Assembly (NCBI GenBank): GCA_045545875.1
Contig: JAZQBS010000153.1
Coordinates: 6,530-70,529 of the forward strand
Length of the DNA: 64,000 bases
Direction: 5' to 3'
Source of the DNA: Bacteroidales bacterium
GTDB taxonomy: Bacteria; Bacteroidota; Bacteroidia; Bacteroidales; UBA3663
Numbering within the stretch: position 1 is the stretch's first letter; every line of letters begins with the position of its first letter. Made by a program: the position numbers and the translations under genes. This document shows positions 426-58,530 of the stretch, piece after piece. Below the pieces are notes generated by a model. The model ran no database searches, had not been told where the DNA came from, and was given only the letters and a program-made list of their open reading frames with translations.

Positions 426-1577
426 TTGTCCTCCATCTACCTCCACATCCCCTTCTGCGCCTCCCGCTGCATCTATTGCGACTTCTACTCCACCATCCTG
501 CGCAACAAGGCCCCCCAGTACGTCGAGGCCTTGATCCGCGAGATGGACGAGCGGAGGTCCTTCCTCCAAACCCCCGTCCGCACCATCTACTTCGGAGGCG
601 GCACCCCCTCCCAATTAGGCCCCGCCAACATCGCCACCCTCCTCCGCGCCCTCTCCTCCCATTTCGACCTCTCTCATTGCGAAGAAATCACCCTCGAAGC
701 CAACCCCGAGGACTTCATCGACGGCACCTGGCCAATAGCTGGTCCCGCTTCCTCCCCCTATGCAGGGGGATTAGAGGGGGTCCCCATCACCCGCCTCTCC
801 CTCGGCGTCCAGTCCCTCGTCGATAGCGAGCTCCGCCTCCTTCACCGTCGTCACAATGCCGCCCACGTCCGTGAGGCCGTCCGCTTCCTCCGCGATGCCG
901 GCATCACCAACCTCAGCCTCGACCTGATGTACGGCCTCCCCACCCAGACCCTCGCGTCCTGGGAATACAGCATCGACGAAGTCCTGAAGCTCCGACCCCA
1001 GCACATCTCCGCCTACAACCTCAGCGTCGAACCCGGCACCCGCCTCCACAGCCTCGTACAAAAGGGCGAGCTCACCCCTTGCGACGACGAGACCTGCCTC
1101 CAGATGGCAGCTCTCCTCCGCACCAAGCTCAAGGCCGCAGGCTTCGAGCAATACGAAATCTCCAACTACGCCCTCCCCGGTTTCCATTCCCGTCACAACT
1201 CCTCCTATTGGGTTCCCACCCCCTACCTCGGCTTAGGTCCAGGCGCACACAGCTACGACGGCCACAACCGTCGCAGTTGGAATGCTCCCGACGTGGTAGC
1301 ATACTTACGAGGAGACCGTGCCGAAGAATCTGAAACCCTCTCCGACCTCGACCTTTACAACGAACGAGTCATGCTCGGCCTCCGCACCGCCCATGGCATC
1401 GACCTCCACGATCTTGAATCCGCCCTACCCCAATCATGCTCCCTCAACACCCTCCGCCCCACCATCGACTCCCTCCTCCACCGCAATCTTCTCCAGCTCC
1501 GCCACAATCACCTCTCTCTCACCCCCTCCGGCCTCTCTCTCGCCGATGAAGTCATTCGCGAACTTATGTTCGTCTAA
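426..1577 (+). CDS. hemW: Radical SAM family heme chaperone / oxygen-independent coproporphyrinogen-III oxidase-like protein (HemW/HemN family)
   Basis: Motifs HIPFCASRCIYCDF (CxxxCxxC), GGGTPS and LSLGVQS are present. It has a TTG start directly after the repeat array, and the length (383 aa) is typical. Confidence 0.85.
   Translation: MSSIYLHIPFCASRCIYCDFYSTILRNKAPQYVEALIREMDERRSFLQTPVRTIYFGGGTPSQLGPANIATLLRALSSHFDLSHCEEITLEANPEDFIDGTWPIAGPASSPYAGGLEGVPITRLSLGVQSLVDSELRLLHRRHNAAHVREAVRFLRDAGITNLSLDLMYGLPTQTLASWEYSIDEVLKLRPQHISAYNLSVEPGTRLHSLVQKGELTPCDDETCLQMAALLRTKLKAAGFEQYEISNYALPGFHSRHNSSYWVPTPYLGLGPGAHSYDGHNRRSWNAPDVVAYLRGDRAEESETLSDLDLYNERVMLGLRTAHGIDLHDLESALPQSCSLNTLRPTIDSLLHRNLLQLRHNHLSLTPSGLSLADEVIRELMFV
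744..783 (-). repeat. In-frame copy (reverse orientation) of the core of the GACCCCCTC..CCCCCT-GCTT-AGGGGG interspersed element inside hemW
   Basis: CCCGCTTCCTCCCCCTATGCAGGGGGATTAGAGGGGGTCC aligns with the reverse complement of 19763-19805 and 7812-7845 with few mismatches. It encodes ...GPASSPYAGGLEGVP... Confidence 0.75.
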
Positions 1578-1618
1578 CCCTCGCCAACTCATTTTATGGT
1601 CATTAACATCTAAAACTC

Positions 1619-1654
1619 TGCAGAATTCTATGCAGAATTCTATGCAGAATTATA
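1619..1654. repeat. 3 x 12-bp tandem repeat TGCAGAATTCTA (each unit carries GAATTC)
   Basis: Read directly. It lies 40 bp after the hemW stop. Confidence 0.9.
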
Positions 1655-1986
1655 AGATTATCTGTATAGTCGTCATCATATAAAATAATAATCTGTTCAA
1701 TCCTAAGCGCCTCCTCAACTGTTTTTCTCAACGAAACCAAAATTTCCAGTTTATATTTAGCAGGAATAGCTGTTAATAAAATCAATCTGTTTAATCCGCA
1801 GCTCATCTTAAGTCCACCAATGAATCTTTAAGCCTATTTTCACCTTTTCTCTCAAAAAACTCATGTCAATTCGTGATATTTCGTGTTAAATATACCCCTC
1901 GACACGACAGATTCCCGCACTCCCATTCGAGCCTGTCGCATATTCCCTCTCTTGTCGCTACCAAAAACCAAAAATCCCACAAAATA

Positions 1987-2018
1987 TTTGGGACCCACAG
2001 AAAATCCTTCTACCTTTG
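1987..2018 (+). promoter_or_regulatory. Bacteroidota sigma-A type promoter (TTTG-N20-TACCTTTG)
   Basis: TTTG at 1987-1990 and TACCTTTG at 2011-2018, about 68 bp upstream of the ATG at 2086. Confidence 0.6.
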
Positions 2019-2085
2019 CACCGTGAAAATGATTCACACAAAACACAATTCAAGATATTATAAACAATTAAAAAACAAAAACATT

Positions 2086-2802
2086 ATGAAAAAGATTTTA
2101 TTGGTATTGGCATGGTTCTGCTGCCTCGCAGTAATGGCACAAGCCGGAGTAGCAAAGTATTGCATGAGTTATTCAGATTTCGTCAATGGAAACTGGAAGC
2201 CTGTTGAAGAGTTGACACAGGGTCGCACCATTCAAGCGTGCCAACTTAAGAGCTTAGATAACCACTACTATTTCAGGACAGGCGACAAAGCTGCCGACAG
2301 GGTATTGAAGAAGCAAGCCTTTGCCGTGATGTACGGCGACCAATTGTTCGTCAACTGCCGCAATCTGCGCAACAACGGCGTATGCCTCGACGTCTCTGGT
2401 TACACCCAGGCCGTTCGCTACGACCAAGACAAGGTTTGTGTGATGGCATACAAGATCGACGACGCATCCTTCCTGTTAGGCTTAGGTCTCGAGATTGCCA
2501 GCGTGTGTGTTGACAACAAAGCCGCAAAAGTAGGTCTTGGCGCAGCCGCTATTGGCACCATGATAGGCAATGAGTTCTTGAGCAAGACTGTCTGCTACCT
2601 CGTCGACAACGATGCCGATGTGAAGGGCAAGATCCCGGTAACACGAATGAACGACCAATACATGGAAAATCTCCTCAACGACGATGCCCCATTACTTGAA
2701 CAATACATGGCCATCCACAACAAGCGCAGCCGCCAGTCCTCAGCCAACGTGCTCCCCATCCTGATGGAAAAGGGCCTCGTCACCTCATTCGCAACAAATT
2801 AA
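2086..2802 (+). CDS. Hypothetical secreted protein (238 aa)
   Basis: The ATG at 2086 gives the signal peptide MKKILLVLAWFCCLAVMAQA. The track ORF (1873) runs across the promoter, so the shorter start is preferred. Confidence 0.7.
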   Translation: MKKILLVLAWFCCLAVMAQAGVAKYCMSYSDFVNGNWKPVEELTQGRTIQACQLKSLDNHYYFRTGDKAADRVLKKQAFAVMYGDQLFVNCRNLRNNGVCLDVSGYTQAVRYDQDKVCVMAYKIDDASFLLGLGLEIASVCVDNKAAKVGLGAAAIGTMIGNEFLSKTVCYLVDNDADVKGKIPVTRMNDQYMENLLNDDAPLLEQYMAIHNKRSRQSSANVLPILMEKGLVTSFATN

Positions 2803-2828
2803 ATATATTTATTGATCACATAACGACA

Positions 2829-2858
2829 AAGAGCGATCTCTCACGTGGAATCGCTCTT
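2829..2858 (+). terminator. Hairpin terminator AAGAGCGAT-N12-ATCGCTCTT followed by a T-rich tract
   Basis: A 9-bp perfect stem 27 bp after the stop at 2802. Confidence 0.55.
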
Positions 2859-3377
2859 GTTTATTTCATATCAGTCAATTTCCACCATCACCGGCATTCA
2901 TTTACACCACTTTTTTGTGGTTCGCAATAAGCACCTTCAAGTGTTCAGGAATATCCCAATTCGTGAATGAATCGAGCCTCTAGTCTCCATCAATATTTTT
3001 AGTTTGCAAAAAAGAGTCGAAACATTGACCAATACCTACCCAGAGGTCTTTTCGTCAGACATGTTTCTGAAGAATGATGTTCTCTAACGTTCGTTGGGGA
3101 CATGATTAAGATACCCCTATCGGTTATCATGAATTATCGAATTTAAGAATACAACTTATTGCAGGCTCCAAGGCAGAGCAGTTTGTTGTTAGCTTCTAAT
3201 ATCTCAAATGGCGAATAGCTGCCGTCGAAACTTATCACGTAGTGGGCGAAAGCGTTTTGACGAGCTAGGCATTGTCAATCGTTACATTACTCTCGGTCTG
3301 GCTTTTGGCCGAAATGGACGTGACCGATGGGTTCAACTAAGATGCTGAACGTCTAAATAGGCACCTATAATCGTATG

Positions 3378-4547
3378 CTAAATCTTAATGATAATCTTCT
3401 TCCAGTATAGCACCCATTGAATACAGAAAATGGCGAGCGTAAATATTAGTGCCCAAAGTAGCGAGAGGTACTCATTGGCGCCAAACCATCGAGAGGGGTC
3501 GAATCCGATCCTAGGTAATGTAGTGGCAAGAATGGCACACACAACGAAAGCGACAAGGGCATTGGTTCCCATGATTTTGAACGGGAAAAACGGTTTCTCA
3601 TATCCACGAATCTCTATCAAGTACATCAAGAATCCAAACGCGACCATTGCCCATCCGCCGGAGTAGAAGACAAAAGATGCAGTCCAAAGAGGCTTGTTGA
3701 TTGGAATCCACAGTCCAAGTATCATGGCGAGACCGATACTCAAACAACCGTAAACCATGATTCTTGTGATAATACCAACAGAGGAACTTTGGACCAAGGA
3801 AGAATCAGCGGAGTACCGTCGGTCACTTTTTACGATGAGGGCACCAATTAAATAACCCAGCAATGCAGTACAAGCACCAGTGATGCACCCCAGAGGTCCT
3901 TCAGGATCAAAAGCAACTGGATAGCCTACGGCGTTATGGTGTCCATGATAGACGTTGGCATCGCCCAACAACGCAAGATCAATCTTCCTGGAAACATTAC
4001 CCTCAAGTGAGAAAGGTCCCGGTTCGGTTCCGAAAACAAGAAATAAAAAGGTATAGACAGTCATCAGGACACCGATGGCCATCATAATCTTGATGGGTTT
4101 CTTGAGCCAAAGGGTAATTAATCCTGCAATCAGATATGAGATACCAATCCTCTGCAAAACACCGAAAATCCTCCGATGGGATAGCCAATACAAGTAATTA
4201 TCGCCAAATGTGGCTGATGGTTCGTAAAAATAGGTTGGGAAAAAAGGATACAGGTTACACAGCAATCCCACCAAAAAGATCAATATACCCCTTTTAATCA
4301 CCTTCCAGTAGATCAGATTGGAAACCCTCTCCTGCCGAGAGAAAGATAAAGCCATGGCACATCCTGTACAGAACAGGAAAAAGGGGAATACAAGGTCGGT
4401 GGGTGTGCATCCTACCCATGAAGCGTGCCTCAGTGGGGAAAAAATGAAAACCCAAGTGCCAGGATTATCGACTATACACATGAAAGCGACCGAGATCCCG
4501 CGGAGGACATCAAGGGAGACGTATCTTTTTGTTGCCAAACTAGTCAT
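3378..4547 (-). CDS. Polytopic membrane acyltransferase-like protein (DUF1624/DUF5009, heparan-alpha-glucosaminide N-acetyltransferase-like)
   Basis: The N-terminus RYVSLDVLRGISVAFMCIVDNPG is followed by about 10 hydrophobic helices. A TATCTTTG box lies on the minus strand near 4575. Confidence 0.55.
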   Translation of the reverse strand: MTSLATKRYVSLDVLRGISVAFMCIVDNPGTWVFIFSPLRHASWVGCTPTDLVFPFFLFCTGCAMALSFSRQERVSNLIYWKVIKRGILIFLVGLLCNLYPFFPTYFYEPSATFGDNYLYWLSHRRIFGVLQRIGISYLIAGLITLWLKKPIKIMMAIGVLMTVYTFLFLVFGTEPGPFSLEGNVSRKIDLALLGDANVYHGHHNAVGYPVAFDPEGPLGCITGACTALLGYLIGALIVKSDRRYSADSSLVQSSSVGIITRIMVYGCLSIGLAMILGLWIPINKPLWTASFVFYSGGWAMVAFGFLMYLIEIRGYEKPFFPFKIMGTNALVAFVVCAILATTLPRIGFDPSRWFGANEYLSLLWALIFTLAIFCIQWVLYWKKIIIKI

Positions 4548-4680
4548 AGATGTTCAAAAAATCGCGACAAAGATACAAATTAAATCTGAAATAGTTGAAC
4601 TTTAGGGCTGTTTTTTTTCGATAATGGCTGCATTTTCATGATTTCTTGGCGAAATTGTTGATTATGGGCTCGGGGTGAGC

Positions 4681-7581
4681 TTAAAAGCTGATGAGGAAGT
4701 CGACGAGGTTCTGGTCGGCGGAGAGGGAGAACTTGCGACGGAGACGGAGGCGGGCGCTTTCGACACCACGGACGGAGAGGTTGGTGAAGGTGGCAATCTG
4801 CTTGGTGGAGAGATTGAGGCGGAGGAGAGCGCAGAACTTCAGGTCGCTGGAGGTGAGGGAGGGATAGCGCTCCTGGAGGTTGCGGAAGAAGTGCTCGTGG
4901 ATGAGGTCGAAGTTCTTCTGGTAGATGCTCCAGAACTCGAGGTTGCCTTCGGTCTGCTGAATGCGCTTGAGGAGGGCATTCATCTCGCGTACCGAGATGT
5001 TGCCCTTCTTCTGTTCCTCCTGCATCGATTCGCGAAGGTTCTCGATGACCTTTTCCTTCGAGAAGACATCCATGGCCAGGGTGGCGAGATCCTTGGACTT
5101 GGAGGAGAGCTCGGTTTCGAGTATCTGACGCTGCTGCTGTGCGATGCGCTGTTCCTGTTCGAGCATGATGATGCGCTGTTCACGGCTCTCCTGCTCGTGC
5201 TGATGCTTCTGGCGGAGGATGGCGCGGTGTGTGCTCCATCGTCCGTAGATCCAGGCCACGATGCCAATGATGCCGAGGAAAAGGAGGATGGACCACCAAC
5301 GGAGATACCAAGGCTGGAGGACGCGGAAATGCAGCTGGAGCATGTCGAGGGTTTGACCGGTGGGACCAATCACTTCGGCCTGGAGCGTGTAGGTGCCGGG
5401 CTTCAGGTTGTTGAGCGTCAGCTGCTGGTGGGTGGTAGGAATGTCGCGGCGAGTGCCTTTTGGGATGGAATAACGGAACGAAACGCCACGCCCGTTGTAC
5501 TCGGGATAGGAAAAGAGGAGGTTGAGGTTGGGTTCGATGACGGGTTCTCCACTGATGAGCGCCTGGTGCGGGATGTCGTGCCGTTGGCCATTGCTCTCGT
5601 TGAAGTAGGAAAAGGAGATGGCGATGCGAGGTTGGATGAGCGAGTCGAAACGACGGGCAGCGAGATCGTAGCGCACTACCCCACCCGACATGTTGAAGTA
5701 GGCACAGTCGCCGCACTGATAGACGGTGGCGCACCTGTCGCCCGCCAGCATGCCGAGCGATGAGACGGGGATGTACTGGCGCAGACAGAGGCTATCGGCC
5801 TCCTTGTCGATGAGGGCATAGCCCTTCTGACCAGCCAACCAAACGCCGTAGGTGCCGGCATCGGTGGCGTTGAAGATGTCCTGGGTATTGGCGAGGAGGC
5901 GGTTGAGCGGGTCGTAGGGAACGATGCGCTGCGACACGTCGTCGTAGGTGTAGAGCTGCTGTTCATCGCTCAATACGATGCGCCCAAAGAGCTTCATGAC
6001 ATGGCAGGTGGAGGCTCCTCCCTCTTCACTGCTGAGACTTTCGAAGGAGCGGAGGTGATCGACGGAGCGAAGGTTGCGATCGAGCGTGATGCAATAGAGT
6101 CCTTTCTGCATATTGGTGGCCCAGATACGGCCGATGTGATCGACCTCGAAATGACGGATAGGTGACGAGAAACCTTCGACCTCATGGCTGAAGGTCCAAC
6201 TGCCTTGTTGCTGGCGATAGACACGCAGGACGTTGTAGGACGACTCAATCAGGACATCCTGGTCCCAGATGCGGCATTGCTTGAGGCAGGTGCTACTGGC
6301 TTCGGTGTGAGGAACTGGAGTCAACTGGAAGTCGTGATCGGCATCGACCATGAACGTGCTGCGGTTGCAGCCGAGGAACAGCTGACGGCCGATGCGGGTG
6401 ATGTGCCAGTTCTGTCCTTCGGTGTCGGGGATGAGGGAAGCCTCCCCTTTCGCAGGATGAACGGGGTCGGCATCGATAGGAATATGGTAGAAGCCCTCGT
6501 TGGTGGCCATGAGAAGTTCGCCCTGATGGAGCAACAGCCCAAAGACGGTGCCAATGGACTGATGGACGGGCGAAGGCTTGAGGCAGGTGATGGGCAAGCC
6601 GCAATGAATGAGTGCGATGCCGTTGTCGAGGCAAGCCCAAACGTTGTTGTCGGCATCGCAGAAGAGGTTGAGCACGGAGTTGTTGACCAGCCCGTCGGCC
6701 ACATTGTAATGCCAAAGCAGTTTACCGCTGAGGTCGAGGCCGTAGATGCCGTCGCGGAGGGTGCCGATGACGAGTGTGCTGTCGCGGGTGATGACGGCTC
6801 GGTTGATGGAGGCATGGCGAAGCTGCTCGTCGATGGTGGTACGGTAAGGAATGATAAGTCCCGAGGCGGGTCGATACAGGAAGAGGGCTGCATTCTCGGT
6901 GCAGAGCAGCATGTCGCCCGTGGTACGGAGCAGAAAGCCCGCTACGATGCGACTGTTGCCATAGACCGAAGGAGAAATTGACGGCACATAGTCGTGCCCG
7001 TCGAAGCGATAGTAGCCACCTTCGATGAGCTGTGCCCAAAATTGTCCGCCTATCTGATGCAGGTAGAGCGGGTGCTTGTCGGAGAAGTTGATGGGAGTGA
7101 CGCTGCCCTGTCCGTCGTTGGCGGTAGGGTCGTAACGGAAGATGGAGGCAAAGGTCTGGAAGTAGATGTCGTGGCCCTGCTCCAGGATAAACCAGGGCTC
7201 TTCGAGTTCCATCGGGAAGTCGCCGATGAGGGGACGCAGAGAAGTATAGTTGAGTTGGCCGAAGTCGTCGCGTTCGAAGTAACCGAAGTCCTCGTAGGTG
7301 CCGACATAGATGCGGTTGCCTACAGCTTTGACGGAACGCATGATGGTTGTCTCGGGCAAGGAGACGGTTGACCATTGGTAGCCATCGAAGACCAGCAGGC
7401 CTTTCTTGGTGGCGAAATAGACCGTACCATTGGAATCCTGTGTGCAGCTCCATACCTGCGAACCCGTGGAGAATCCGTAGTCGGTGGGCGTAAAGTTGGT
7501 TATGATTGGACGAAAACCAGCAGCCTGGAGGGCCAAAGTAGCTGACAGGAGGGGTAAAAAGAGGAGGTGTCGAAGCTTCAT
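4681..7581 (-). CDS. Transmembrane one-component regulator: periplasmic beta-propeller/Y_Y_Y-type sensor, one TM helix, coiled coil, C-terminal LuxR-type HTH
   Basis: Signal peptide, repetitive propeller-like N-terminal 700 aa, TM segment WWSILLFLGIIGIVAWIY, and C-terminal ...LSTKQIATFTNLSVRGVESARLRLRRKF. I saw no histidine kinase or receiver motifs. Confidence 0.75.
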   Translation of the reverse strand: MKLRHLLFLPLLSATLALQAAGFRPIITNFTPTDYGFSTGSQVWSCTQDSNGTVYFATKKGLLVFDGYQWSTVSLPETTIMRSVKAVGNRIYVGTYEDFGYFERDDFGQLNYTSLRPLIGDFPMELEEPWFILEQGHDIYFQTFASIFRYDPTANDGQGSVTPINFSDKHPLYLHQIGGQFWAQLIEGGYYRFDGHDYVPSISPSVYGNSRIVAGFLLRTTGDMLLCTENAALFLYRPASGLIIPYRTTIDEQLRHASINRAVITRDSTLVIGTLRDGIYGLDLSGKLLWHYNVADGLVNNSVLNLFCDADNNVWACLDNGIALIHCGLPITCLKPSPVHQSIGTVFGLLLHQGELLMATNEGFYHIPIDADPVHPAKGEASLIPDTEGQNWHITRIGRQLFLGCNRSTFMVDADHDFQLTPVPHTEASSTCLKQCRIWDQDVLIESSYNVLRVYRQQQGSWTFSHEVEGFSSPIRHFEVDHIGRIWATNMQKGLYCITLDRNLRSVDHLRSFESLSSEEGGASTCHVMKLFGRIVLSDEQQLYTYDDVSQRIVPYDPLNRLLANTQDIFNATDAGTYGVWLAGQKGYALIDKEADSLCLRQYIPVSSLGMLAGDRCATVYQCGDCAYFNMSGGVVRYDLAARRFDSLIQPRIAISFSYFNESNGQRHDIPHQALISGEPVIEPNLNLLFSYPEYNGRGVSFRYSIPKGTRRDIPTTHQQLTLNNLKPGTYTLQAEVIGPTGQTLDMLQLHFRVLQPWYLRWWSILLFLGIIGIVAWIYGRWSTHRAILRQKHQHEQESREQRIIMLEQEQRIAQQQRQILETELSSKSKDLATLAMDVFSKEKVIENLRESMQEEQKKGNISVREMNALLKRIQQTEGNLEFWSIYQKNFDLIHEHFFRNLQERYPSLTSSDLKFCALLRLNLSTKQIATFTNLSVRGVESARLRLRRKFSLSADQNLVDFLISF

Positions 7582-7769: not shown

Positions 7770-7801
7770 TTTGGATATTATTTCGAAAGGCTTTACCTTT
7801 G
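7770..7801 (+). promoter_or_regulatory. Promoter of the SusC/SusD operon (TTTG-N20-TACCTTTG)
   Basis: TTTG at 7770-7773 and TACCTTTG at 7794-7801. This implies a 5' UTR of about 245 nt. Confidence 0.6.
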
Positions 7802-7811
7802 CGGTGAGAAA

Positions 7812-7893
7812 GACCCCCTCTTATCCCCCTGCTTAGGGGGAAGATCCATCCGGGTTCCGATTTTCTTATCACGAAATAGAGAATTTGAGAATT
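7812..7893 (+). repeat. Interspersed about 80-bp element, copy 1 (GACCCCCTC-TTA-TCCCCCT-GCTT-AGGGGGA ... TTATCACGAA ... TTTGAGAATT)
   Basis: Aligns with 19763-19833 over its whole length, and its core aligns with 744-783 in reverse complement. Confidence 0.8.
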
Positions 7894-8049
7894 TTATTTT
7901 TGGTGACTTGGGATGGAGGGAAGAAGAACACAAATTGAACGAATCTTCACGAATGGCTATTGCGAGTGAAGAAGAGTCAGGACAATTACACGAACAGGAA
8001 ATTCAACCTATACATATATATATTAATTATCAACCAAATCCTATTAAGT

Positions 8050-11000
8050 ATGAAAAAGCAAACGCTTGCATTATTGCTTGTCCTTGCTATGGTCCCGGTG
8101 TCAATGATGGCACAGAGCCTGGGCAAGGTGAAGGGTCGCGTGCTCGATGAGTTCGGCGAACCATTGCTGGGTGCTGTAGTACGCGTGGCAGGTACCGACA
8201 TCGTGACCACCACAGACTACGACGGCAACTACGAACTCGACGGTGTGGCATCGGATGCCACATTGACTTGCTCCTACCTTGGCATGACGACTGAGAACGT
8301 GAAGGTCAAGGGCGGAACGATGAACATCAGCATGTCGCCCGACGTGCAGAACCTTGAGGAGACCGTGGTGATCGGTTACGGCGCAGCCAAGTCGAAGGAC
8401 CTGACCGCACCCATCGAGACGGTGAAGGCATCGGACATCGTCAGCGTGCCAACCTCTTCGCCCATGGCAGCCCTGCAGGGCAAGGTTGCCGGTGTGAACA
8501 TCGTGAACAGCGGTGTACCTGGCGGCGGACCTACGGTGACCATCCGTGGTCTGGGTTCGTTCAGCAACACTACCCCACTCTACGTGGTGGATGGAATGTT
8601 CTACGACAACATCAACTTCCTCAACAACAGTGACATCGAGGAGATGAGCATCATGAAGGATGCCAGCGCTAGTGCCATCTATGGTGTGCGTGCCGCCAAC
8701 GGTGTGGTGATCATCACCACGAAGAAAGGCAAGAACAACGAACGCGCCAAGGTGTCGTACGACGGTTACGTGGGCGTGCAGAAGGCCACCGACGTGCTTG
8801 AGATGAGCAATTCGAGCCAGTATGCACAGATGCTGCGTGAGAGCGAAGTAGCCGACTACCTGCCCATGCTTCAGGCCAGTGTGGCCAAGTACGGCGGCAA
8901 TTTCGAGCAGAACCAGTACAATTCGGACACCGACTGGTACGACGAACTGCTTCGCACAGCCGTGATCACCAACCACAGCCTGAACATCAGCGGCGGTACC
9001 GACAAGGCCAACTACGGCGTGGGCATGAGCTACCTCTATCAGAACGGTATCATGGATACCGACAACAACTATTCGCGCCTAAACTTCCGCGGCAACCTGG
9101 AATACAAGGCCTTCAACTGGCTCACCGTGGGCATGAACGGCGTGTTCAGCCAGAGCACCCAGGTGCTGCCCAACAATGCAGCCTGGCAGCAGGCATTCAA
9201 CATGCCCGGCATCTTCCCCGTGTATGACAAGACAACAGCCGACATCTACACCGACGGATATGCCAGCCCGAACACCATCGGCGTGAGCAACAACTTCTAC
9301 AACCCTGTGGCTACTGCCAAGCTGTTCGATTCGCAGAACAAGAACTACCAGGTGCTGAGCAACTTCTATGCACAGATCAACATCCTGCCCGAGAAGTTGA
9401 ACTTCCGCACCAGCTACAGCTATGACTATTCGACCACACGTGCCACGGCATTCACGCCCCAGTATTACCTGGGCACCGTGCAGCAGACTTCGACCACCAG
9501 CCTGACCAAGAGCGACAGCAACTACAACAACTACGTATGGGACAACACGATGACCTATACCGACCAGTGGGGCGACCATCGCTTGACCGCCATGCTCGGC
9601 ACTTCGCTGCGCCAGGAGCGCTACGACGGCCTTTGGGGCACCGCACAGAACGTGCCCGAGGGACAGGACAGCTGGAAGTACCTCTCGCTGGGCGACACGG
9701 AAGGCATCACCCTGGGTGACGGCGGTTTCCGCAACCGTGCCCTCTCCTACTTCGCACGTTTCAACTACAACTACGCCGACAAGTACCTGCTCATGGTAAC
9801 CCTCCGCGAGGACGGCAGCTCGAAATACAACGAGCCTTGGGGCTTCTTCCCCTCGGTAGGTGCTGCCTGGGTAATCACCAACGAGGACTTCATGAAGGAC
9901 CAGGACCTCTTCCAGTACCTGAAGCTTCGCGCCAGCTGGGGTAAGCTCGGTAACGACAAGATTGCAGCCAGTGCAGGTTATGCAGCCAGCGCTACGGCAC
10001 GTGCCGTGTTCGGCACCAACAACGCCCTCGACGGCTACATCAACGGTTCGACCTTCAGCTGGCTCAGCTGGGAGACCGTCAACGAGACCAACATCGGCTT
10101 GAACTTCACCACCGCCAACAATCACCTCACCGGTGACATCGATTGGTACTATCGCTTGACTAGCGACGCCGTAATCAGCCCCGCACGCCCGATGCAGAAC
10201 ACCACCGTGGCAGGCAACTGGGCCGAGATCCTCAACATGGGTGTGGATATGACCCTGAACTGGAACCAGCGTCTCACCAAGGACTTCAGCTACCAGATTG
10301 GAGCCAACCTCGGCTGGCTGCACAATGAGGTGAAGAGCCTGAAGGACGGCGTACAGCAGGTGCAGACCAACGGAAAGGTCTATCAGATCGTGGGCGAGAA
10401 GATGAACAGCTACTACGGCTACAAGGTGGTGGGCATCTATCAGAATGCCGCCGAAGTGGCAGCCGACCCCGTGGCTGTTGCCAACGGACTTGAGCCCGGT
10501 GACTTCCGCTATGAGGACGTGAACGGCGACAAGGTGATTGACGGCAGCGACAAGCAGACCCTGGGCAGCTACGTGCCCGACATCACCTACGGACTGAATG
10601 CAGCCGTACAGTGGCGCAACCTCGACTTTGCCATCAGCTTCTACGGTCAGGCAGGCGGTGAGCTCTGGAACCGCAAGCGCGCCCTGCGTTATGCAGCCCA
10701 AAACTACAACTTCGACCTTGCACAGTACGAGAACCGCTGGCACGGCGAGGGAACGAGCAACAGCGATCCTTCGGCCAAGGCCCTGATGAAGAGCTGGAAC
10801 GTGGGCGACAGCCAGAATGCCAGCTACTTCGTAGAGAGCGCCAACTACTTCCGTCTGCAGAACGTTTCGCTCGGCTATACGTTCAAGAACATCGAGATGG
10901 GCGGCTACACCCTGCCCAGCGCACGCGTCAGCCTTTCGGCCGACCGTCCATTCACCTGGTTCTCGGCCAATACCTTCTCGCCTGAGGTAAGTGATGCCGA

Positions 11001-11067
11001 CGGCTGGGATTGGCAGGTCTATCCACTCTCCGCAACCTATACCCTGGGTGTGCAGATTAACTTCTAA
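8050..11067 (+). CDS. SusC-like TonB-dependent outer-membrane receptor
   Basis: Signal peptide from the ATG at 8050, a carboxypeptidase-regulatory-like domain (GRVLDEFGEPLLGAVVRVAGT), a plug (VVIGYGAAKSKDLT), and a C-terminal ...YTLGVQINF barrel end. Confidence 0.95.
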   Translation: MKKQTLALLLVLAMVPVSMMAQSLGKVKGRVLDEFGEPLLGAVVRVAGTDIVTTTDYDGNYELDGVASDATLTCSYLGMTTENVKVKGGTMNISMSPDVQNLEETVVIGYGAAKSKDLTAPIETVKASDIVSVPTSSPMAALQGKVAGVNIVNSGVPGGGPTVTIRGLGSFSNTTPLYVVDGMFYDNINFLNNSDIEEMSIMKDASASAIYGVRAANGVVIITTKKGKNNERAKVSYDGYVGVQKATDVLEMSNSSQYAQMLRESEVADYLPMLQASVAKYGGNFEQNQYNSDTDWYDELLRTAVITNHSLNISGGTDKANYGVGMSYLYQNGIMDTDNNYSRLNFRGNLEYKAFNWLTVGMNGVFSQSTQVLPNNAAWQQAFNMPGIFPVYDKTTADIYTDGYASPNTIGVSNNFYNPVATAKLFDSQNKNYQVLSNFYAQINILPEKLNFRTSYSYDYSTTRATAFTPQYYLGTVQQTSTTSLTKSDSNYNNYVWDNTMTYTDQWGDHRLTAMLGTSLRQERYDGLWGTAQNVPEGQDSWKYLSLGDTEGITLGDGGFRNRALSYFARFNYNYADKYLLMVTLREDGSSKYNEPWGFFPSVGAAWVITNEDFMKDQDLFQYLKLRASWGKLGNDKIAASAGYAASATARAVFGTNNALDGYINGSTFSWLSWETVNETNIGLNFTTANNHLTGDIDWYYRLTSDAVISPARPMQNTTVAGNWAEILNMGVDMTLNWNQRLTKDFSYQIGANLGWLHNEVKSLKDGVQQVQTNGKVYQIVGEKMNSYYGYKVVGIYQNAAEVAADPVAVANGLEPGDFRYEDVNGDKVIDGSDKQTLGSYVPDITYGLNAAVQWRNLDFAISFYGQAGGELWNRKRALRYAAQNYNFDLAQYENRWHGEGTSNSDPSAKALMKSWNVGDSQNASYFVESANYFRLQNVSLGYTFKNIEMGGYTLPSARVSLSADRPFTWFSANTFSPEVSDADGWDWQVYPLSATYTLGVQINF

Positions 11068-14000: not shown

Positions 14001-14136
14001 GGAGTTAACGGGAGTTAGCGCTTCGCGCGGGAGTTAACGGACGAATGTGTCTTGTGTCCCGATATTTATAAGGCGAAGGTATCGTCCGTTAACTCCCAAT
14101 AACTTCCAATAACTCCCGATAACTCCCAATAACTCC
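14001..14136. repeat. Inverted pair of phased arrays: GGAGTTA at 14001, 14011, 14030 and 5x TAACT(C/T)C at 14090-14130 (exact 10-bp period), with central hairpin ACGGACGA(14037)/TCGTCCGT(14082)
   Basis: Read directly. The architecture matches 261-423 but uses a different heptamer. Confidence 0.9.
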
Positions 14137-14166
14137 CAATAAATTATAAATAATAATTTTTTTGCT

Positions 14167-16800: not shown

Positions 16801-19761
16801 ATGAAGATTTATCAATCGTTCCCGTTGGGACGCAGATTGTTACTCCTCTGCTTCATCCTGGTTGGGTGGAGCAGTTGCGTTGTGTCGTATGCGTTCAACA
16901 TCACAGGACGCGTAGCTTCGGCGACTGACGACACACCTTTGGCTGGGGCTACCATTCGACTGCTGACACTTCCTGACTCGACCTTTGTGGTGGGCACTTT
17001 TGCTGACCACAACGGCAATTTCAGCCTACATTCCTCGCGACTGGACGGACTGCTGAAGCCTAGAAGGGCGCAGCAGAAGGTGCTGGTGCATTTTACGTAC
17101 GTGGGATTCCAGGAGACCATGAAGACATTTACGCTGCATCACAGACAGAAGTCGTTCTCGTTGGGTGACGTGTTTATGCAGGAAGAACATCGCCTGCTGG
17201 GCGAGACCGTCATTTCGGCCACCCCTCCCCCAATGGTGATTCGCGAGGACACCATCGAATATTATGCGAGCAGTTACCAGCTGGAGCCTGATGCTACCGC
17301 CGAGGACCTGCTGAAACGCCTGGCGGGCGTAGAGGTGGATGCTGACGGAAGCATCACCGCACAGGGCGAGACGGTGACAAAGGTGTATGTGGACGGGAAG
17401 GAATTCTTCGGTTCGAACATCCAGGCCACGACGAAAAACCTCACCGCCGACATGTTCGAGTCGGTGCAGGTGGTGGACATGAAGACCGAAGAGAGCCGTC
17501 TGACGGGCATCGACAACGGTGAACGCGAGAAGGTGATCAACTTCAAGCTGAAGCCAAGGATGCGACGCGGATACTTCGGCAATGCCGCAGGCGCATGGGG
17601 TGACGGCAGCGGCATCGACGACCGCTTCGAGACAAAAGGCATGCTGGGATACTTCCGTGGCGACAACCAGAACGCGCTGGTGGTGAATGCAAACAACACC
17701 AACAACACGGGCTTCGGCGACATGGGCGAGAAGGTGATGCGCAACTCGTCGATGCGCGGCAACCGAAACAGCGGACGACGCGGCGACGGACTGAACACCT
17801 CGTGGAGCGTAGGCCTGAACCTCAACTACGACAAGGGCAACCGACTGCGTGACGAGAACACACCTTTCGCCATGGGCGGTGACGTGCTCTACGGCGGAGA
17901 GAAACAGAGCGAGAAGTCGTCGTCGCACCGCATCAACTACCTGAAGTCGGGCAACACCGGCACAGACACCGAGCAGACGGGCGACAACAAGGGGCAGAAC
18001 CTGCAACTCGACTTCAAATATGAGAAGACCTGGGGCAAGGTGGCCGACGGCGAACACCGTCTGCAAATCAATCCCGAACTGGCCTTCAACAGGACAGAGA
18101 CCGACGAACATTCGACTAGCCGAAATTATCACCTCGATCCCGATGCCGAGGATGAGATCACGGCAGATCCTTCGACCTACATCAGCCAGACACAGCGTGC
18201 AAGTCACATGAAGCAGCAGGGTGCCAACTACGAACTGTCGCTCACCTACTCGTATGCCAAGAAGACAGAACGTGGCCGCCGACGCAGCAGCATACGCGTC
18301 AGTCTGAACGGAAGACACAACGACGGCGACCATTATACGCAGTCGTTCACCAGCTACGACAGCCTGCTTGTGGGTGACCTGAGCCTCCTGAACGACACCA
18401 CCATCAACCAGTGGCAGGAGGAGCGACAGAACTCGCTGACCTATCGCGTTCGACTCACCCATGTGGAACCCATCGCCGAACATCATATGATCGAGTTGGG
18501 TGCGACGGGCAGTTTCACACGCAACACGCATCGCCAGCTCTACCACTTCTGGGATGAAGAGCTTGGGCGATATGCCGACTCGGTGGACGGACGTTCGAAC
18601 ATCGACTACAGCACCGATTCGCGCACACAGCAGAACAGTTACACGCTGTCGGCCAGCTATCGCTACGTCACCGAACGTGTCAATGCATCACTGGGCATGG
18701 ACCTGCTGCCCAACACGCAGAACTACACCGACCTCTACGACCACAGGCGTGACTACAAGCGTTCGTACATGAACCTTGCTCCACGTGTGGAATACCGCTA
18801 CAACTGGGACCGCAGGAAGAACCTGCGCATCACCCTGAACGGAAGGACGACACAGCCATCGATCAACCAACTGCAGGCACGCAAGAACCAGACGTCGGCC
18901 ACCCATGTGACCTTGGGCAACCAGGACCTGGAACCCTCCTACCAGACCAATATGCAGATACGTTACCGTGCCAACAGCAAGGAGACGGGACGCACGATGG
19001 AGGCTTCGATCAACGCCAGTGCACAGTTCAACACCTTGGCCACCAAACGCTGGTACAGTGCTGACCTTCGCACCGACACGACGATGACGGTGAACCTCGA
19101 CGGACTGGGCGCATGGAACGTGCAGAGCGAATTCAGAGGGTCGTTCCCCTTTGCCGACAACCACTGGTACGTGACCACTCAGACCACCCTTGGCTACCGC
19201 GAGAGCGTGGGATATGCCAACCTGAAAAGCACTGATACGCAGGTGAACCATATACACAACATTACGGCAAGCGAAATGGCGGGTATCGCTTACCGTAACG
19301 AATGGCTCAACGTGGAACTGCACGGGAACTATCAACTGAGTCACAGCGAGGCGACGATCGTCACCTCGGGAAATCTGGGAACGACACACCAGTTCGGTGT
19401 GCGAAGCAACCTCAGCGCCCGTCTGCCCTGGAACCTGAGTTGTTCGACGAGCATTGCATACACAGGACGACGCGGCTATTCGGCAGGCCTGACACGCAAC
19501 CAGACCATCTGGGACGCACAGCTTTCGCGCGCGTTCCTGAAACGCAAGAACCTGTCGGCCTTCGTGAAGGTGTTCGACATCCTGCATCAGAAGACGAGCA
19601 TCTGGCGCTCTATCTCGGCCACGTCGATCACCGACCGTGAGAGCACCATCCTCAAACAATACTTCCTTGTGGGATGCAGCGTGAAGTTCAATCAGCGGGG
19701 CGGTCGTGGAGGTCATGGAGGTGGAGAAGGAAGAGAAGGTAGGGGAAGGCGCGAACGTTAA
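16801..19761 (+). CDS. TonB-dependent-receptor-like outer-membrane beta-barrel protein (carboxypeptidase-regulatory domain + plug-like + OMP_b-brl_3-type barrel) with Gly/Arg-rich C-terminal tail
   Basis: N-terminal ...ITGRVASATDDTPLAGATIRL..., then ...VYVDGKEFFG..., and a long beta-rich C-terminal part. The tail is ...QRGGRGGHGGGEGREGRGRRER. Confidence 0.8.
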   Translation: MKIYQSFPLGRRLLLLCFILVGWSSCVVSYAFNITGRVASATDDTPLAGATIRLLTLPDSTFVVGTFADHNGNFSLHSSRLDGLLKPRRAQQKVLVHFTYVGFQETMKTFTLHHRQKSFSLGDVFMQEEHRLLGETVISATPPPMVIREDTIEYYASSYQLEPDATAEDLLKRLAGVEVDADGSITAQGETVTKVYVDGKEFFGSNIQATTKNLTADMFESVQVVDMKTEESRLTGIDNGEREKVINFKLKPRMRRGYFGNAAGAWGDGSGIDDRFETKGMLGYFRGDNQNALVVNANNTNNTGFGDMGEKVMRNSSMRGNRNSGRRGDGLNTSWSVGLNLNYDKGNRLRDENTPFAMGGDVLYGGEKQSEKSSSHRINYLKSGNTGTDTEQTGDNKGQNLQLDFKYEKTWGKVADGEHRLQINPELAFNRTETDEHSTSRNYHLDPDAEDEITADPSTYISQTQRASHMKQQGANYELSLTYSYAKKTERGRRRSSIRVSLNGRHNDGDHYTQSFTSYDSLLVGDLSLLNDTTINQWQEERQNSLTYRVRLTHVEPIAEHHMIELGATGSFTRNTHRQLYHFWDEELGRYADSVDGRSNIDYSTDSRTQQNSYTLSASYRYVTERVNASLGMDLLPNTQNYTDLYDHRRDYKRSYMNLAPRVEYRYNWDRRKNLRITLNGRTTQPSINQLQARKNQTSATHVTLGNQDLEPSYQTNMQIRYRANSKETGRTMEASINASAQFNTLATKRWYSADLRTDTTMTVNLDGLGAWNVQSEFRGSFPFADNHWYVTTQTTLGYRESVGYANLKSTDTQVNHIHNITASEMAGIAYRNEWLNVELHGNYQLSHSEATIVTSGNLGTTHQFGVRSNLSARLPWNLSCSTSIAYTGRRGYSAGLTRNQTIWDAQLSRAFLKRKNLSAFVKVFDILHQKTSIWRSISATSITDRESTILKQYFLVGCSVKFNQRGGRGGHGGGEGREGRGRRER

Positions 19762-19762
19762 G

Positions 19763-19833
19763 GACCCCCTCAATCCCCCTGCTTAGGGGGAGGACTGGCG
19801 GGTCACGTTTTTTTTATCACGAATTTGAGAATT
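19763..19833 (+). repeat. Interspersed element, copy 2 (GACCCCCTC-AA-TCCCCCT-GCTT-AGGGGGA ... T8-ATCACGAATTTGAGAATT)
   Basis: Begins 1 nt after the stop codon of the 16801 gene and aligns with 7812-7893. Confidence 0.8.
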
Positions 19834-19989
19834 GATAAGTAAGAAAAAAAAACTTTCTGAAAGGTATAGGTGCGAAGCACCATATGCATAGAGTTAGTGC
19901 CAGTCTTCTATGAGAGCAAGATCTCCTAGCTGACTGGCACTAAGTCTATGCGCACATTTACGATGTGTTACACCTTTCAAAAAGAGAGA

Positions 19990-20733
19990 TTATTCTTCGA
20001 GAACCGAAATCTGCATGGTGATGTCGTCGACGGGACGATCACCAGGCTGGGTTTGGACAAGCTGAATCTTATCGACCACATCGAGACCCTCTTCTACTTC
20101 ACCAAAGACGGTGTAGTTCTGATCGAGGAAGGGTGTGCCACCAACGGTGGTATAGACCTCACGCTGCTCGGGAGTGTACTTGGGTTCGCCCTTCTCCTTG
20201 GCCAGGGCCATAGTCTTTTTCTGCAGTTCGTCCTGCAAGGCCATCAGGCCTGCGTTGTCGAGGTTCTTGCGCAACTGGATGATGCGACTGCGATTCTCGA
20301 CCACGAGGTCGTTGAAGATGTTCTGCAACTGCTGCTGAGCCATCTGACGCTCGAGCTGGGTGAGTTTGCCGGCACTGTAGATCTCGCCAGTGACGATGTA
20401 GAACTGGCTACCACTGGAACGCTTCTCGGGATTGACCTCGTCGCCCTGACGGGCAGCAGCGAGGGCTCCCTTCTTATGTATCAGCGACTTGTTGAACTCG
20501 GCAGGGATGGTGTAGTCGGGGCCTCCGGCACCGAGATGTGCAGTGGGAGAAGCTCCACGCGAATCGGGATCGCCACCCTGAACCATAAAGTTCTTGATGA
20601 CACGGTGGAAGAGAGTGCCGTCGTAATAGCCCTCGTGGGCCAACTTGAGGAAATTATCACGATGAAGGGGGGTCTCGTCATAGAGACGAACGGTGATGTC
20701 ACCGAGGGAGGTCTTGATCAGGACTTTGGACAT
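19990..20733 (-). CDS. Cyclophilin-type peptidyl-prolyl cis-trans isomerase with a helical insertion
   Basis: Motifs ...FHRVIKNFMVQGGDP... and ...YTVFGEVEEGLDVVDKI..., with an about 70-aa insert as in the paralogue at 55904-56716. Confidence 0.9.
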   Translation of the reverse strand: MSKVLIKTSLGDITVRLYDETPLHRDNFLKLAHEGYYDGTLFHRVIKNFMVQGGDPDSRGASPTAHLGAGGPDYTIPAEFNKSLIHKKGALAAARQGDEVNPEKRSSGSQFYIVTGEIYSAGKLTQLERQMAQQQLQNIFNDLVVENRSRIIQLRKNLDNAGLMALQDELQKKTMALAKEKGEPKYTPEQREVYTTVGGTPFLDQNYTVFGEVEEGLDVVDKIQLVQTQPGDRPVDDITMQISVLEE

Positions 20734-20964
20734 GGGTTATTTTTTGGGGGAAAGAGGATGAAGAGCAGCCATACACGGCTGCTGACGGGGACAAAGGAGG
20801 GGACAAGGCAGCCAAGGATGGCTGCTGACAAGGACAAAAGGGATGAGGGGGACGGAACGGGGTCAAGAATGGTTGTGCAAACCATTGCATTTGCAACAGT
20901 CAGATGACAAACATATGTTTTTCAACATATTTTTGAGGGAAATATGCAGTTTTTTATGGAAATA

Positions 20965-20996
20965 TTTGCTATAAGGGCAAAAATCGCATATCTTTG
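20965..20996 (+). promoter_or_regulatory. Orphan consensus promoter TTTG-N20-TATCTTTG
   Basis: TTTG at 20965-20968 and TATCTTTG at 20989-20996. There is no plus-strand CDS downstream. Confidence 0.5.
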
Positions 20997-21002
20997 CATC
21001 GT

Positions 21003-21070
21003 GTTTTTCATGGTATTAGATTTTAAGGTTAATGCAAAGGGTCGTTGTGAAACGCCCCTTTCGCATTTTT
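21003..21070 (+). ncRNA. Candidate small RNA (about 68 nt) bounded by the orphan promoter and a hairpin plus T5
   Basis: The hairpin AATGCAAAGGGTCG-N8-CGCCCCTTTCGCATT (21031-21067) runs into a T tract (21066-21070) on the plus strand only. Ends are approximate. Confidence 0.3.
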
Positions 21071-39186: not shown

Positions 39187-39258
39187 CAACTCCATCTATA
39201 ACGCAAGATTGTCGCGAAATGGAATAAGCGGGATACAAGATTCCCTTTCTATAATCGA

Positions 39259-39712
39259 GGCATAGCCATTTTGCGCCAAGGTTGGGTATTCTACTATAGA
39301 AGCATACCCTTTCTTGGCCAAAATTGGTTATGCCTCTTTCGAATAAAGCACTCTGACGGCCGACAGAGTGCTTTATCCAGTCGAAGTATACCCTTTCTTA
39401 GCCGAAATTGGTTATGCTACTATCTGCGAAAGCACTCTGACAGCCGCCAGAGTGCTTTATCCAACCGAGGTATACCCTTTCTTGGCCGAAATTGGTTATG
39501 CTACTATCGCCGCATACCCTTTCTTGGCCAACTTTGGTTATGCTCCAATCGGCGAAAGCACTCTCACGGCCGACAGGATACTTGCTTCCATCGGAGAATG
39601 ACCATTCTTAGCCAAAAAAGGTTATGCCTCATTCGAAAAAAGCACTCTGACGGCCGACAGAGTGCTTTATTCGTTCGCGGCATAACCAATCTTGGCGCAG
39701 ATTGGTTATACG
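39259..39712. repeat. Mosaic tandem array with 84-bp period of two alternating hairpin modules (A: GCATACCCTTTCTTGGCCRAAATTGGTTATGC; B: AAAGCACTCTG-ACGGCCGA-CAGAGTGCTTT)
   Basis: A copies at 39302, 39386, 39470, 39512 and about 39598. B copies at 39345, 39429, 39555 (degenerate) and 39639. A terminal perfect palindrome lies at 39682-39709. Confidence 0.9.
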
Positions 39713-53459: not shown

Positions 53460-53497
53460 GATGATTTTAAGTGGAATAATTAACAGTAACATTATCT

Positions 53498-53577
53498 TCT
53501 AGAGTATCTAGATGATCTAGAGCTTCTAGAGTATCTAGATTTTCTAGATTTTCTAGAGCTTCCAGAGAGCATCTAGA
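53498..53577. repeat. 9 x about 9-bp tandem array with palindromic core TCTAGA (53498, 507, 516, 525, 534, 543, 552, degenerate 561, 572)
   Basis: Read directly. It fills the 137-bp gap between the GH43 stop and the GH9-like start. Confidence 0.9.
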
Positions 53578-58299: not shown

Positions 58300-58469
58300 T
58301 TAATCCTTTTAAAATTACAATCAGTGAATCGTAACGTTTGAATTTTATTGCCTGCAAAGATAGTTGTATTTTTCGAAATAAACAAATTATTAGTGGGAAA
58401 TTTTCGTTTTCAGGCGAAATTTCCCACTTTATGCGAACGATTGAAATCTGTGATATGAGATTAAGAGGG

Positions 58470-58530
58470 GGTTCGAAGGGTTCGAAAGGTTCAAAGGGTT
58501 CGAAAGGTTCGAGGGGATGAAGGGTTCAAT
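58470..58530. repeat. About 7 x 9-bp tandem array GGTTCGARR (58470, 479, 488, 497, 506, then degenerate), palindromic core TTCGAA
   Basis: Read directly. It is intergenic except that its last degenerate unit contains the stop codon of the 58526-59290 gene. Confidence 0.9.

Follow-up and report, generated by a model that had tools for sequence, protein, structure and literature searches.

Repetitive extragenic palindromic sequences (REPs) are stem-loops of 20–40 nucleotides (nt) with an unpaired GTAG or CGTC (variants TGTC, CCTC) at the foot of the stem, and in-frame intragenic REPs occur in several species (PMC3733652). REPs of the CGTC type have a stem of 8–9 base pairs (bp) that starts with A-T pairs, a loop of 4–5 nt, and a 3-nt tail; no transposase is known for them, and only for the GTAG type is there a cognate RAYT/TnpA_REP gene (RAYT, REP-associated tyrosine transposase) flanked by the repeat (PMC3733652). 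The Rickettsia palindromic elements (RPEs) RPE-4 and RPE-6 are CGTC-tagged REPs, re-classed by Di Nocera et al. 2013 (PMC3733652). Bacteroidetes have TnpA_REP genes of subclass 2.6 that are flanked by atypical hairpins recurring in the genome (PMC6006769), and bacterial MITEs (miniature inverted-repeat transposable elements), e.g., Correia/NEMIS, ERIC, Nezha, and Chunjie, are reviewed in PMC10969869. Here we describe a hairpin repeat with two runs of five C and one of five G, the C5/G5 unit, one copy of which lies in frame in hemW, the gene of a radical S-adenosylmethionine (SAM) heme chaperone, in a stretch of 64,000 nt from a Bacteroidales bacterium (contig JAZQBS010000153.1, positions 6,530 to 70,529), which we call the window.

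The C5/G5 unit is like the RPEs in that it is short and palindromic, occurs both between genes and in frame within functional genes, in several frames, and adds short peptides at tolerated sites of host genes that are under selection. It differs from them in its hosts, which are Bacteroidota and not Alphaproteobacteria, in its two C5 runs and one G5 run, and in its size of 33–36 nt, single in hemW; the likeness is drawn from organisation and not from sequence homology, and membership among the RPEs is not claimed. With REPs, bacterial interspersed mosaic elements (BIMEs), and REP doublets forming hairpins (REPINs), it shares a size within the 20–40 nt range, a stem-loop with an unpaired conserved 5′ part, occurrence as singles, inverted dimers, and clusters, a mostly intergenic location with occasional in-frame copies, and the lack of target-site duplications. 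When it is compared with the CGTC type of REP in particular, ATCCCCCT/AGGGGGAT form an 8-bp stem that starts with AT in some copies (L078, L097, L083) and a stem of 7 bp in the hemW copy and most others, the loop has 3–5 nt (4 nt in some copies), and the tail is RGA. (Below, L numbers denote stretches of DNA other than the window and P numbers HemW homologues.) As to the tag, the unit has no GTAG; CCTC, a variant of CGTC, is present just upstream of the stem, in CCCCCTC as part of a second C5 run, and 1–3 nt lie between it and the stem. Unlike REPs, for which species-specificity is described, the unit has a core that is near-constant in many phyla, and no RAYT was found next to any copy in the fetched loci.

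The reading that we consider likely is that the segment in hemW is a REP/RPE-like unit that has been part of the gene since an ancestor and is kept as a translated passenger in a permissive loop. Positions 748–783 of the window are one unit of a REP-like small palindromic repeat, which would have become part of hemW in an ancestor common to a single sub-clade, probably one of Prevotella. It lies in the connection between strands β3 and β4 with its G-rich strand as sense, would have added ~27 nt or 9 codons, and would have persisted as a passenger because its length is a multiple of three, its frame is free of stops, its peptide is flexible and rich in Ser, Pro, and Gly, and the loop is disordered. 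In some lineages it would have been lost again in frame, and in relatives CGTC/TGTC hairpins would have expanded in frame at the same place. The unit presumably arrived as single-stranded DNA in a hairpin-dependent manner, as in the REP/RAYT type of mechanism, and not by a cut-and-paste transposase of the DDE type, and the peptide presumably has no function of its own.

Results

The Hairpin Unit in hemW and Its Relatives in the Window

The features of the window on which the argument is built are the following, where R1 is a covariance model trained on 49 units from Bacteroidales, the window copies among them, and used with all filters off, and ORF stands for open reading frame.

426–1577, + strand: hemW, radical-SAM heme chaperone, 383 aa (TIGR00539 score, domains, dN/dS, structure model)
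748–783, − strand (C-rich orientation): in-frame single unit of the C5/G5 hairpin repeat, coding for residues ~109–119, SSPYAGGLEGV (R1, 48.1 bits, E = 5e-11)
753–770, + strand: the hairpin proper, 7-bp stem T753–T759/A764–A770 with the 4-nt loop ATGC at 760–763 (match to CCCCCT-N4-AGGGGG at 754–769)
7811–7846, + strand: intergenic single unit between the divergent ORFs 4681–7581 (−) and 7960–11067 (+) (R1, 46.5 bits)
19761–19796, + strand: intergenic single unit that begins at the last base of the stop codon 19759–19761 of ORF 16801–19761 (R1, 50.4 bits)

An initial annotation of the window had pointed to a 40-nt string at 744–783 as a near-exact reverse complement of the core of intergenic elements at 7812–7845 and 19763–19805. 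The string is there on the + strand with 0 mismatches, and a repeat finder, in the repeat pairs I6 and I10, pairs 750–791 with 7803–7844 (42 nt, 83% complementary) and 750–779 with 19765–19794 (30 nt, 87%). All three copies have a 33-nt core, GACCCCCTC(T)WATCCCCCTGCWTAGGGGGARGA, over which the hemW copy differs from the 7812 copy by 3 mismatches and from the 19763 copy by 1 mismatch and 1 indel. A degenerate pattern of this core matches at exactly these three sites in the window, when 0.00 are expected from 100 dinucleotide-preserving shuffles, and everything in the window other than the three copies scores at most 11 bits with R1. The copy in L001, which is identical to that in hemW of the window and lies outside the R1 training set, scores 48.1 bits. 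The similarity between the hemW segment and the intergenic hairpins is thus real and far beyond chance, and it has survived the comparison with shuffled controls (0.00 expected; 46–50 versus 11 bits).

One could argue that C-rich Ser and Pro codons followed by G-rich Gly codons resemble such hairpins by accident, or that the intergenic copies derive from hemW, and the sense strand of hemW does contain 42% C. These explanations are so improbable that they can practically be set aside: there were 0 matches in the shuffles, the copy scores 48 bits against 11 for the rest, the unit occurs in other genera and phyla with no hemW context, and HemW outgroups lack it. The third codon positions of hemW are 68% C (260/384), a strong codon and strand bias.

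Since the C-rich orientation of the hemW copy is on the − strand, the mRNA has the G-rich orientation, with a second G5 run 3′ of the hairpin at 776–780. The minimum-free-energy fold of 735–795 includes the 7-bp stem, and the mRNA fold around the hemW copy is no more stable than those of shuffles (z = −0.89 and +0.23). At the 19761 copy there are an outer stem and a downstream run of T8, and the fold of 19750–19820 has −29.3 kcal/mol (z = −3.06); its orthologue in L002 lies at 19874–19908 (40.3 bits). A role as intrinsic terminator was rejected, the hemW copy having no T-run and the terminator scan being negative at the 7811 and 19761 copies. About 90 nt downstream of the 19761 copy there is an inverted repeat at 19886–19951 (I12; 30-nt arms, 87% complementary, 6 nt apart), the end of which adjoins the start of ORF 19948–20907.

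All three copies in the window are single units. The annotation of a hairpin element within hemW was right, with the amendment that the hemW copy is a single unit; in other places the full element often takes the form of an inverted pair. The spacer in L003 that is orthologous to that of the 7811 copy (L003 14720–14790 versus window 7800–7850) was considered as an empty site and excluded, since it bears another hairpin, GTCCTCCTCTGGAGGAAG, in the same place, between the kept flanks ..CCTTTGC.G..AGAAA and CCATCCGG. The hairpin in this spacer is, in other words, exchangeable.

Reading Frame and Host Protein

The codons CCC GCT TCC TCC CCC TAT GCA GGG GGA TTA GAG GGG GTC CCC are read as PASSPYAGGLEGVP, between EANPED and ITRLSLGVQS, in agreement with the frame and the peptide ...GPASSPYAGGLEGVP... 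that had been proposed between EANP and RLSLGVQS. To see what the frame demands, consider the loop of the hairpin. The hemW copy is open in the frame used through its loop GCATA, in which TAT codes for Tyr; the consensus loop GCTTA would yield TAA and the peptide SSP*AGG, and both other window copies have stops in that frame. Per unit, two to five of the six frames are free of stops, depending on the variant, and two or three in the GCTTA and GTTTA types. As only the hemW variant is open in that frame, it follows that selection filtered which variant could survive in hemW.

The ORF at 426–1577 passes the curated HemW model TIGR00539 with 261 bits at a cut-off of 205.4. Its product is 100% identical to P0001, and PF04055 and PF06969, with a HemN_C domain among them, are precomputed on homologues that include P0001. 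The cysteines C11, C15, and C18 of the radical-SAM motif CxxxCxxC are invariant across 78 HemW homologues, and the ratio of nonsynonymous to synonymous substitution rates (dN/dS) between the window gene and six relatives is 0.17–0.31. The gene is intact, under purifying selection, and codes for a bona fide HemW.

An AlphaFold2 model of HemW made with these 78 homologues has a mean predicted local distance difference test score (pLDDT) of 88.9 and a predicted template modelling score (pTM) of 0.87. It has strands at 87–92 and 123–129 with coil at 99–122, and the pLDDT falls below 50 at 108–116. From this coil and these low values, the repeat-encoded residues ~109–119 are predicted to form a disordered surface-loop connection directly before strand β4, i.e., between β3 and β4, as the idea of an insertion tolerated in a loop had required. 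Judged from the barrel topology, the loop would lie away from the Fe-S/SAM site. Compared with E. coli HemN (1olt) and NocN (9p2u), the two comparators used here, the spacer between EANP and RLSLGVQS has 11 additional residues. As to the suggestion that an insertion is the source of these extra residues, it holds for the ~9–11 that come from the element and not for all of them.

Upstream of the gene, the spacer 248–427, directly 5′ of the hemW start, has tandem repeats of 10/20 nt, of TAAGGGATTC type at 261–307 and their complement TCCCTTAATA at 378–423, which together make up a 55-nt inverted repeat (pairs I5, I7). The counterpart of this spacer in L001 (9870–10070) has about five CGTC-type hairpins, taken by the gene caller into a longer HemW.

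Age and Turnover of the Segment

An alignment of 120 HemW homologues, from which a rough neighbour-joining tree was built without the loop columns, gives the distribution of the segment, and hemW DNA was recovered for seven relatives. An extra loop is missing from many Bacteroidales HemW relatives (EANPDDIREGQDWGRVNRISMGVQS), and in others there are loops of 5–20 residues unrelated to the segment. The peptide SPYAGGLEG occurs only in the closest HemW set (67–91% identity), being present in P0001–P0025, and, decayed to LPFAGGTEG, in P0028 (72% identity). On the tree, its bearers make up one clade with P0028 as the deepest member, and the segment is missing in the sister clade (P0029–33, P0038, P0043–47) and beyond. 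Within the clade, the nested members P0015, P0019, P0023, and P0026/27 are without it.

The hairpin in hemW is identical in the window, L001, and L002. Past the GCTGCC that L002 and L003 have in common, the L003 DNA falls short of that of L002 by exactly 27 nt; L003, L122, and L124 lack exactly the loop and the G-arm part. L121, the DNA of P0028, matches 23/33 nt of the unit by hand count, at a gene-wide nucleotide identity of 74%, and the nearness of these two values fits old orthologous descent. One old gain with at least three in-frame losses is the simplest reading of the data. The hemW insertion is old and at the level of a clade, not strain-specific, and what varies from strain to strain stems from secondary loss and from another repeat family. 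Of the two alternatives left by the initial annotation, lineage-specific or strain-specific, the first is right and the second is not; nor is there a segment of constant length in all Bacteroidales HemW proteins, as only one clade has it and the L003 DNA is 27 nt shorter.

The second repeat family enters the same loop. Immediately ahead of the C5/G5 unit, relatives have DNA that codes for SPSQPSMAA and in some also for SSSPLFAPFVPVAAKFGCQASPSQPSM, once or twice. The DNA units are CGTC-GCAGCCAT-CC-ATGGCTGC-C and a variant, GCAGCCAA-GT-TTGGCTGC, with the CGTC/TGTC tag directly before the stem, and the hemW loop of relatives has 0–5 such units in frame (three in L002, 10566–10672). In hemW of the window there are none, and the architecture of its loop (IAGPA and the unit) resembles that of the distant P0028 (LAGTA and the decayed unit). 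Elsewhere in the window the family has this site:

20760–20860, − strand: two hairpin units with CGTC/TGTC tags (type GCAGCCAT..ATGGCTGC), lying in a peptidyl-prolyl isomerase gene leader (fuzzy match 20807–20830)

Intergenic arrays occur also in L002 at 20900–21060 (−; four units, isomerase leader) and in L001 at 9870–10070, just upstream of hemW. The hemW loop is a permissive site with turnover and a hot spot for the second hairpin family.

How the Unit Could Have Come and Why It May Have Stayed

Several observations weigh against an old transposition followed by passive carriage. A single gain with three or more losses is read from a rough neighbour-joining tree, and exchange of alleles by recombination would be expected to look alike. 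No recent clean pair of filled and empty alleles was found among the relatives, by which the exact inserted unit and its target would be defined. There are only three copies in the window. In the 1.05 Mb of fetched loci and the window there is no ORF with a Y1/HUH (HUH...Y) motif, a weak test, as RAYTs are single-copy. The element-coded peptide has a conservation of 0.92, compared with a protein average of 0.89 over 9-residue windows, which is above the expectation for a neutral disordered loop and leaves room for homogenisation or weak constraint. Finally, a stretch rich in C is already found at the left-arm position both in the "empty" alleles and in the outgroup (L003 CCTCTCCCTCC, L124 TTCTCCCCCC, L123 CCTCTCCCCC), and therefore part of the hairpin may pre-date the event, so that the gain may have been of the loop and the G-rich part only.

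From the last point arises the alternative that the event was templated copying and not transposition. The unit would then have arrived with no transposase, by template switching or gene conversion from another copy, seeded by microhomology in the C-run, with ~24–27 nt of loop and G-rich part as the gain. Beside the C-rich stretch itself, three facts speak for such copying: the hemW copy is a single unit with no target-site duplication, the same loop has gained and lost second-family units 42 or 84 nt at a time, in a slippage-like manner, and the hemW copy is near-identical to the consensus though its L121 orthologue has decayed to 70%, which fits repeated homogenisation. However, the alignment of the outgroup loop is ambiguous, C/T-rich Ser and Pro codons are common in this C-biased gene, so that the C-run may be a coincidence, and neither a donor copy nor a conversion tract has been identified. 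We regard templated copying as a serious alternative for the arrival of the unit, though as less likely than not.

The conservation of the peptide could, alternatively, mean that the segment is a domesticated element, kept for a function either as peptide, e.g., for contact with a HemW client, or as mRNA hairpin, e.g., for a translational pause. The residues right after SPYAGGLEG vary (0.68–0.75), and the window, L001, and L002 all have a perfect hairpin even though the synonymous divergence (dS) between these genes is 0.19–0.24. Against this stand the loss of the segment with the gene kept in P0015, P0019, P0023, and P0026/27 and its decay in P0028, the presence of the C5/G5 unit in unrelated proteins in several frames, an mRNA fold that is ordinary for its composition (z = −0.89), and the disorder of the segment in the model. 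Because of the repeated loss and the decay, a function of peptide or hairpin is improbable in our judgement, and we return to the translated passenger as the preferred reading.

Units in Other Genes

In loci of other Bacteroidales, C5/G5 units lie within long ORFs of at least eight other gene families, with the Pfam domains kept around the insert:

PriA (L025, L094): TPSIPLQGG in the 3′ DNA-binding domain
Nonribosomal peptide synthetase linker (L058)
HsdR (L059)
GH20 hydrolase (L096)
Ketoacyl synthase (L072)
Pyridine-nucleotide oxidoreductase (L097): close to the N-terminus and perhaps upstream of where the protein really starts
Galactokinase (L044, Prevotella sp. UBA2755): two copies
Nucleotidyl transferase (L044, Prevotella sp. 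UBA2755): inverted pair spanning 66 residues

These intragenic units use both orientations and several frames, and both copies in galactokinase lie in segments that have no counterpart in the solved galactokinase 1s4e. With these cases, the analogy to the Rickettsia palindromic elements that had been drawn for hemW holds as a working picture. L044 has six units in ~2.1 kb (700–3410): two in galactokinase, two in tandem after it, and the inverted pair in the nucleotidyl transferase. The same locus has a thiamine pyrophosphate (TPP) riboswitch at 3618–3713.

The Unit across Bacteria

A scan of one genome per species with the pattern CCCCCTC-N1-2-ATCCCCCT-N3-4-AGGGGGA, for which we estimate a random-sequence expectation well below one match, gave at least 117 stretches; the loci treated here are among the matches listed. 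They come from at least a dozen phyla, namely Nitrospirota, Nitrospinota, Hydrogenedentota, Bacteroidota (Bacteroidales, Flavobacteriales, and others), Desulfobacterota, Pseudomonadota, Planctomycetota, Patescibacteria, Calditrichota, Poribacteria, Binatia, Zixibacteria, and more. The invariance of the core is partly imposed by the search pattern. Loops and flanks go with the lineage: Nitrospirales and Nitrospinota have the TTATCA type, Flavobacteriales have CCAAA, Hydrogenedentota have TCAAA, and Prevotellaceae, like other Bacteroidales, have GCTTA or GTTTA with AGA flanks, which argues against contamination. The consensus in Bacteroidales is (A/G)GA-CCCCCTC-(T)WAT-CCCCCT-[3–5 nt loop]-AGGGGGA-RGA, with a unit of 33–36 nt.

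In the Nitrospirales loci (L017, L022, L029, L073, and others) a longer conserved left flank, ..TTGACAATT..TTTCCTTCC.CG.CTTTG..AGACAA, precedes the unit, and the second half consistently has C6/G6 runs, so that the element is longer and asymmetric there. In L092 (Zixibacteria) and L063 (Nitrospirales), classical CGTC-1-like repeats (GTCATTCCCGCGAAAGCGGGAATCCAGT) adjoin C5/G5 copies. Among contigs classed as viral in the IMG/VR database, L125 has 5 core copies and L127 has 3, on one strand and spaced by ~1.7–2 kb (one gap in L125 is ~4 kb); with only 6 matching contigs, the viral-contig scan gave no sign of a phage vehicle.

The units are organised as singles, as head-to-tail arrays (L036, with a period of 36 nt, and L044), and very often as inverted pairs. 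The arrays of L036 (Prevotella pectinovora), at 5763–5870 and 6464–6590, have three units each, ~36 nt apart, and lie outside long ORFs, a few kb from a 5S rRNA gene. The inverted pairs in Bacteroidales (at least 10) are 80–190 nt long and have the outer ends AGA-CCCCC...GGGGG-TCT around variable centres. They thereby resemble the terminal inverted repeats of MITEs, and like MITEs the elements are small, non-coding, dispersed, and sometimes intragenic. It could accordingly be that the element is a classical MITE, or a fragment of one, that was moved by a DDE transposase, with the 33-nt unit as its terminal inverted repeat. For this speak, beside the many pairs with conserved outer ends, direct repeats of 5–6 nt beside the ends of the pairs in L042 and L057. 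However, no direct repeat of 3 nt or more flanks 44 of the 50 inverted pairs, and four have one of 4 nt or more, when ~1.2 are expected, so that there is no consistent target-site duplication; single 33-nt units and arrays of 36-nt period are common; and no parent insertion sequence with such ends was seen or is known. The missing direct repeats at 44/50 pairs argue against a MITE of the DDE type, and we see little chance that the element is one.

No Rfam family matches at its gathering score, and microRNA matches on L048 were discarded, as they merely reflect a long hairpin. The nearest family there is the whalefall-1 RNA (RF01762), which has no known function and whose description comes from a whale-fall metagenome alone (Weinberg et al. 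2010, PMC2864571). The Flavobacteria-type copy at 4565–4599 of L048 aligns over the whole of this model, a C/U-rich hairpin and then AGGGuGAGGAC, at 30.3 bits, which is below the gathering score of 37; window positions 700–830 have no match to it at E values up to 10. The core strings occur in no searchable paper, and nothing relevant came from literature searches on Prevotella for MITEs or for repeats within genes.

Other Repeats in the Window

Two hairpin units of 42 nt each, GCATAACCAAT..ATTGGTTATGC and AAGCACTCTG..CAGAGTGCTT, alternate over 460 nt at 39250–39710 (pairs I1–I3). Tandem Repeats Finder (TRF) gives periods of 42, 84, and 210 nt for this array, the sequence of which is not related to that of the C5/G5 unit. 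Many short tandem repeats, apparently intergenic and with periods of 9–12 nt, are at 1619–1651, 14090–14142, 24919–24959, 53497–53567, and 58469–58527. Their types are, e.g., TGCAGAATTCTA, TAACTCCCAA, GAAAGGTTC, and TTCTAGAGT, with the GAAAGGTTC type at four places, and comparable 9–12-nt repeats flank a C5/G5 copy in L054.

Discussion

Given that TnpA_REP genes of subclass 2.6 and their recurrent hairpins are present in Bacteroidetes, an enzyme of the Y1/HUH kind is a candidate mover of the C5/G5 unit; the supplements of PMC6006769 contain no hairpin that matches it. One may go further, tentatively and with less confidence than we have in the passenger reading of hemW, and take all C5/G5 "double-run" hairpins to be one coherent and so far undescribed class of small repeats. 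The 22-base core CCCCCTC-N1-2-ATCCCCCT-loop-AGGGGGA would then be near-constant in at least a dozen phyla, Bacteroidales genes would have been colonised in the manner of RPEs, and in the hemW loop, as a hot spot, two families would have been repeatedly gained, homogenised, and lost. If this is true, the near-constant core would imply either that a trans-acting partner is conserved, e.g., a host protein or an enzyme of the HUH type, or that horizontal spread is frequent.

For the biology of these bacteria, the present reading would extend "selfish DNA inside proteins" from Rickettsia and some Proteobacteria to the abundant Bacteroidales of gut and rumen. HemW, an essential-type enzyme with natural alleles that have or lack the insert and with 0–5 units of the second repeat, provides a concrete and testable case. 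Units of this kind inflate or split gene calls, as HemW of the relatives is called at 383–500 aa, and mislead annotation by homology, while the strain-level length polymorphisms that they cause could serve for typing. The conservation of the core across phyla, if it stems from a shared partner, bears on how the CGTC-type and atypical REPs are mobilised.

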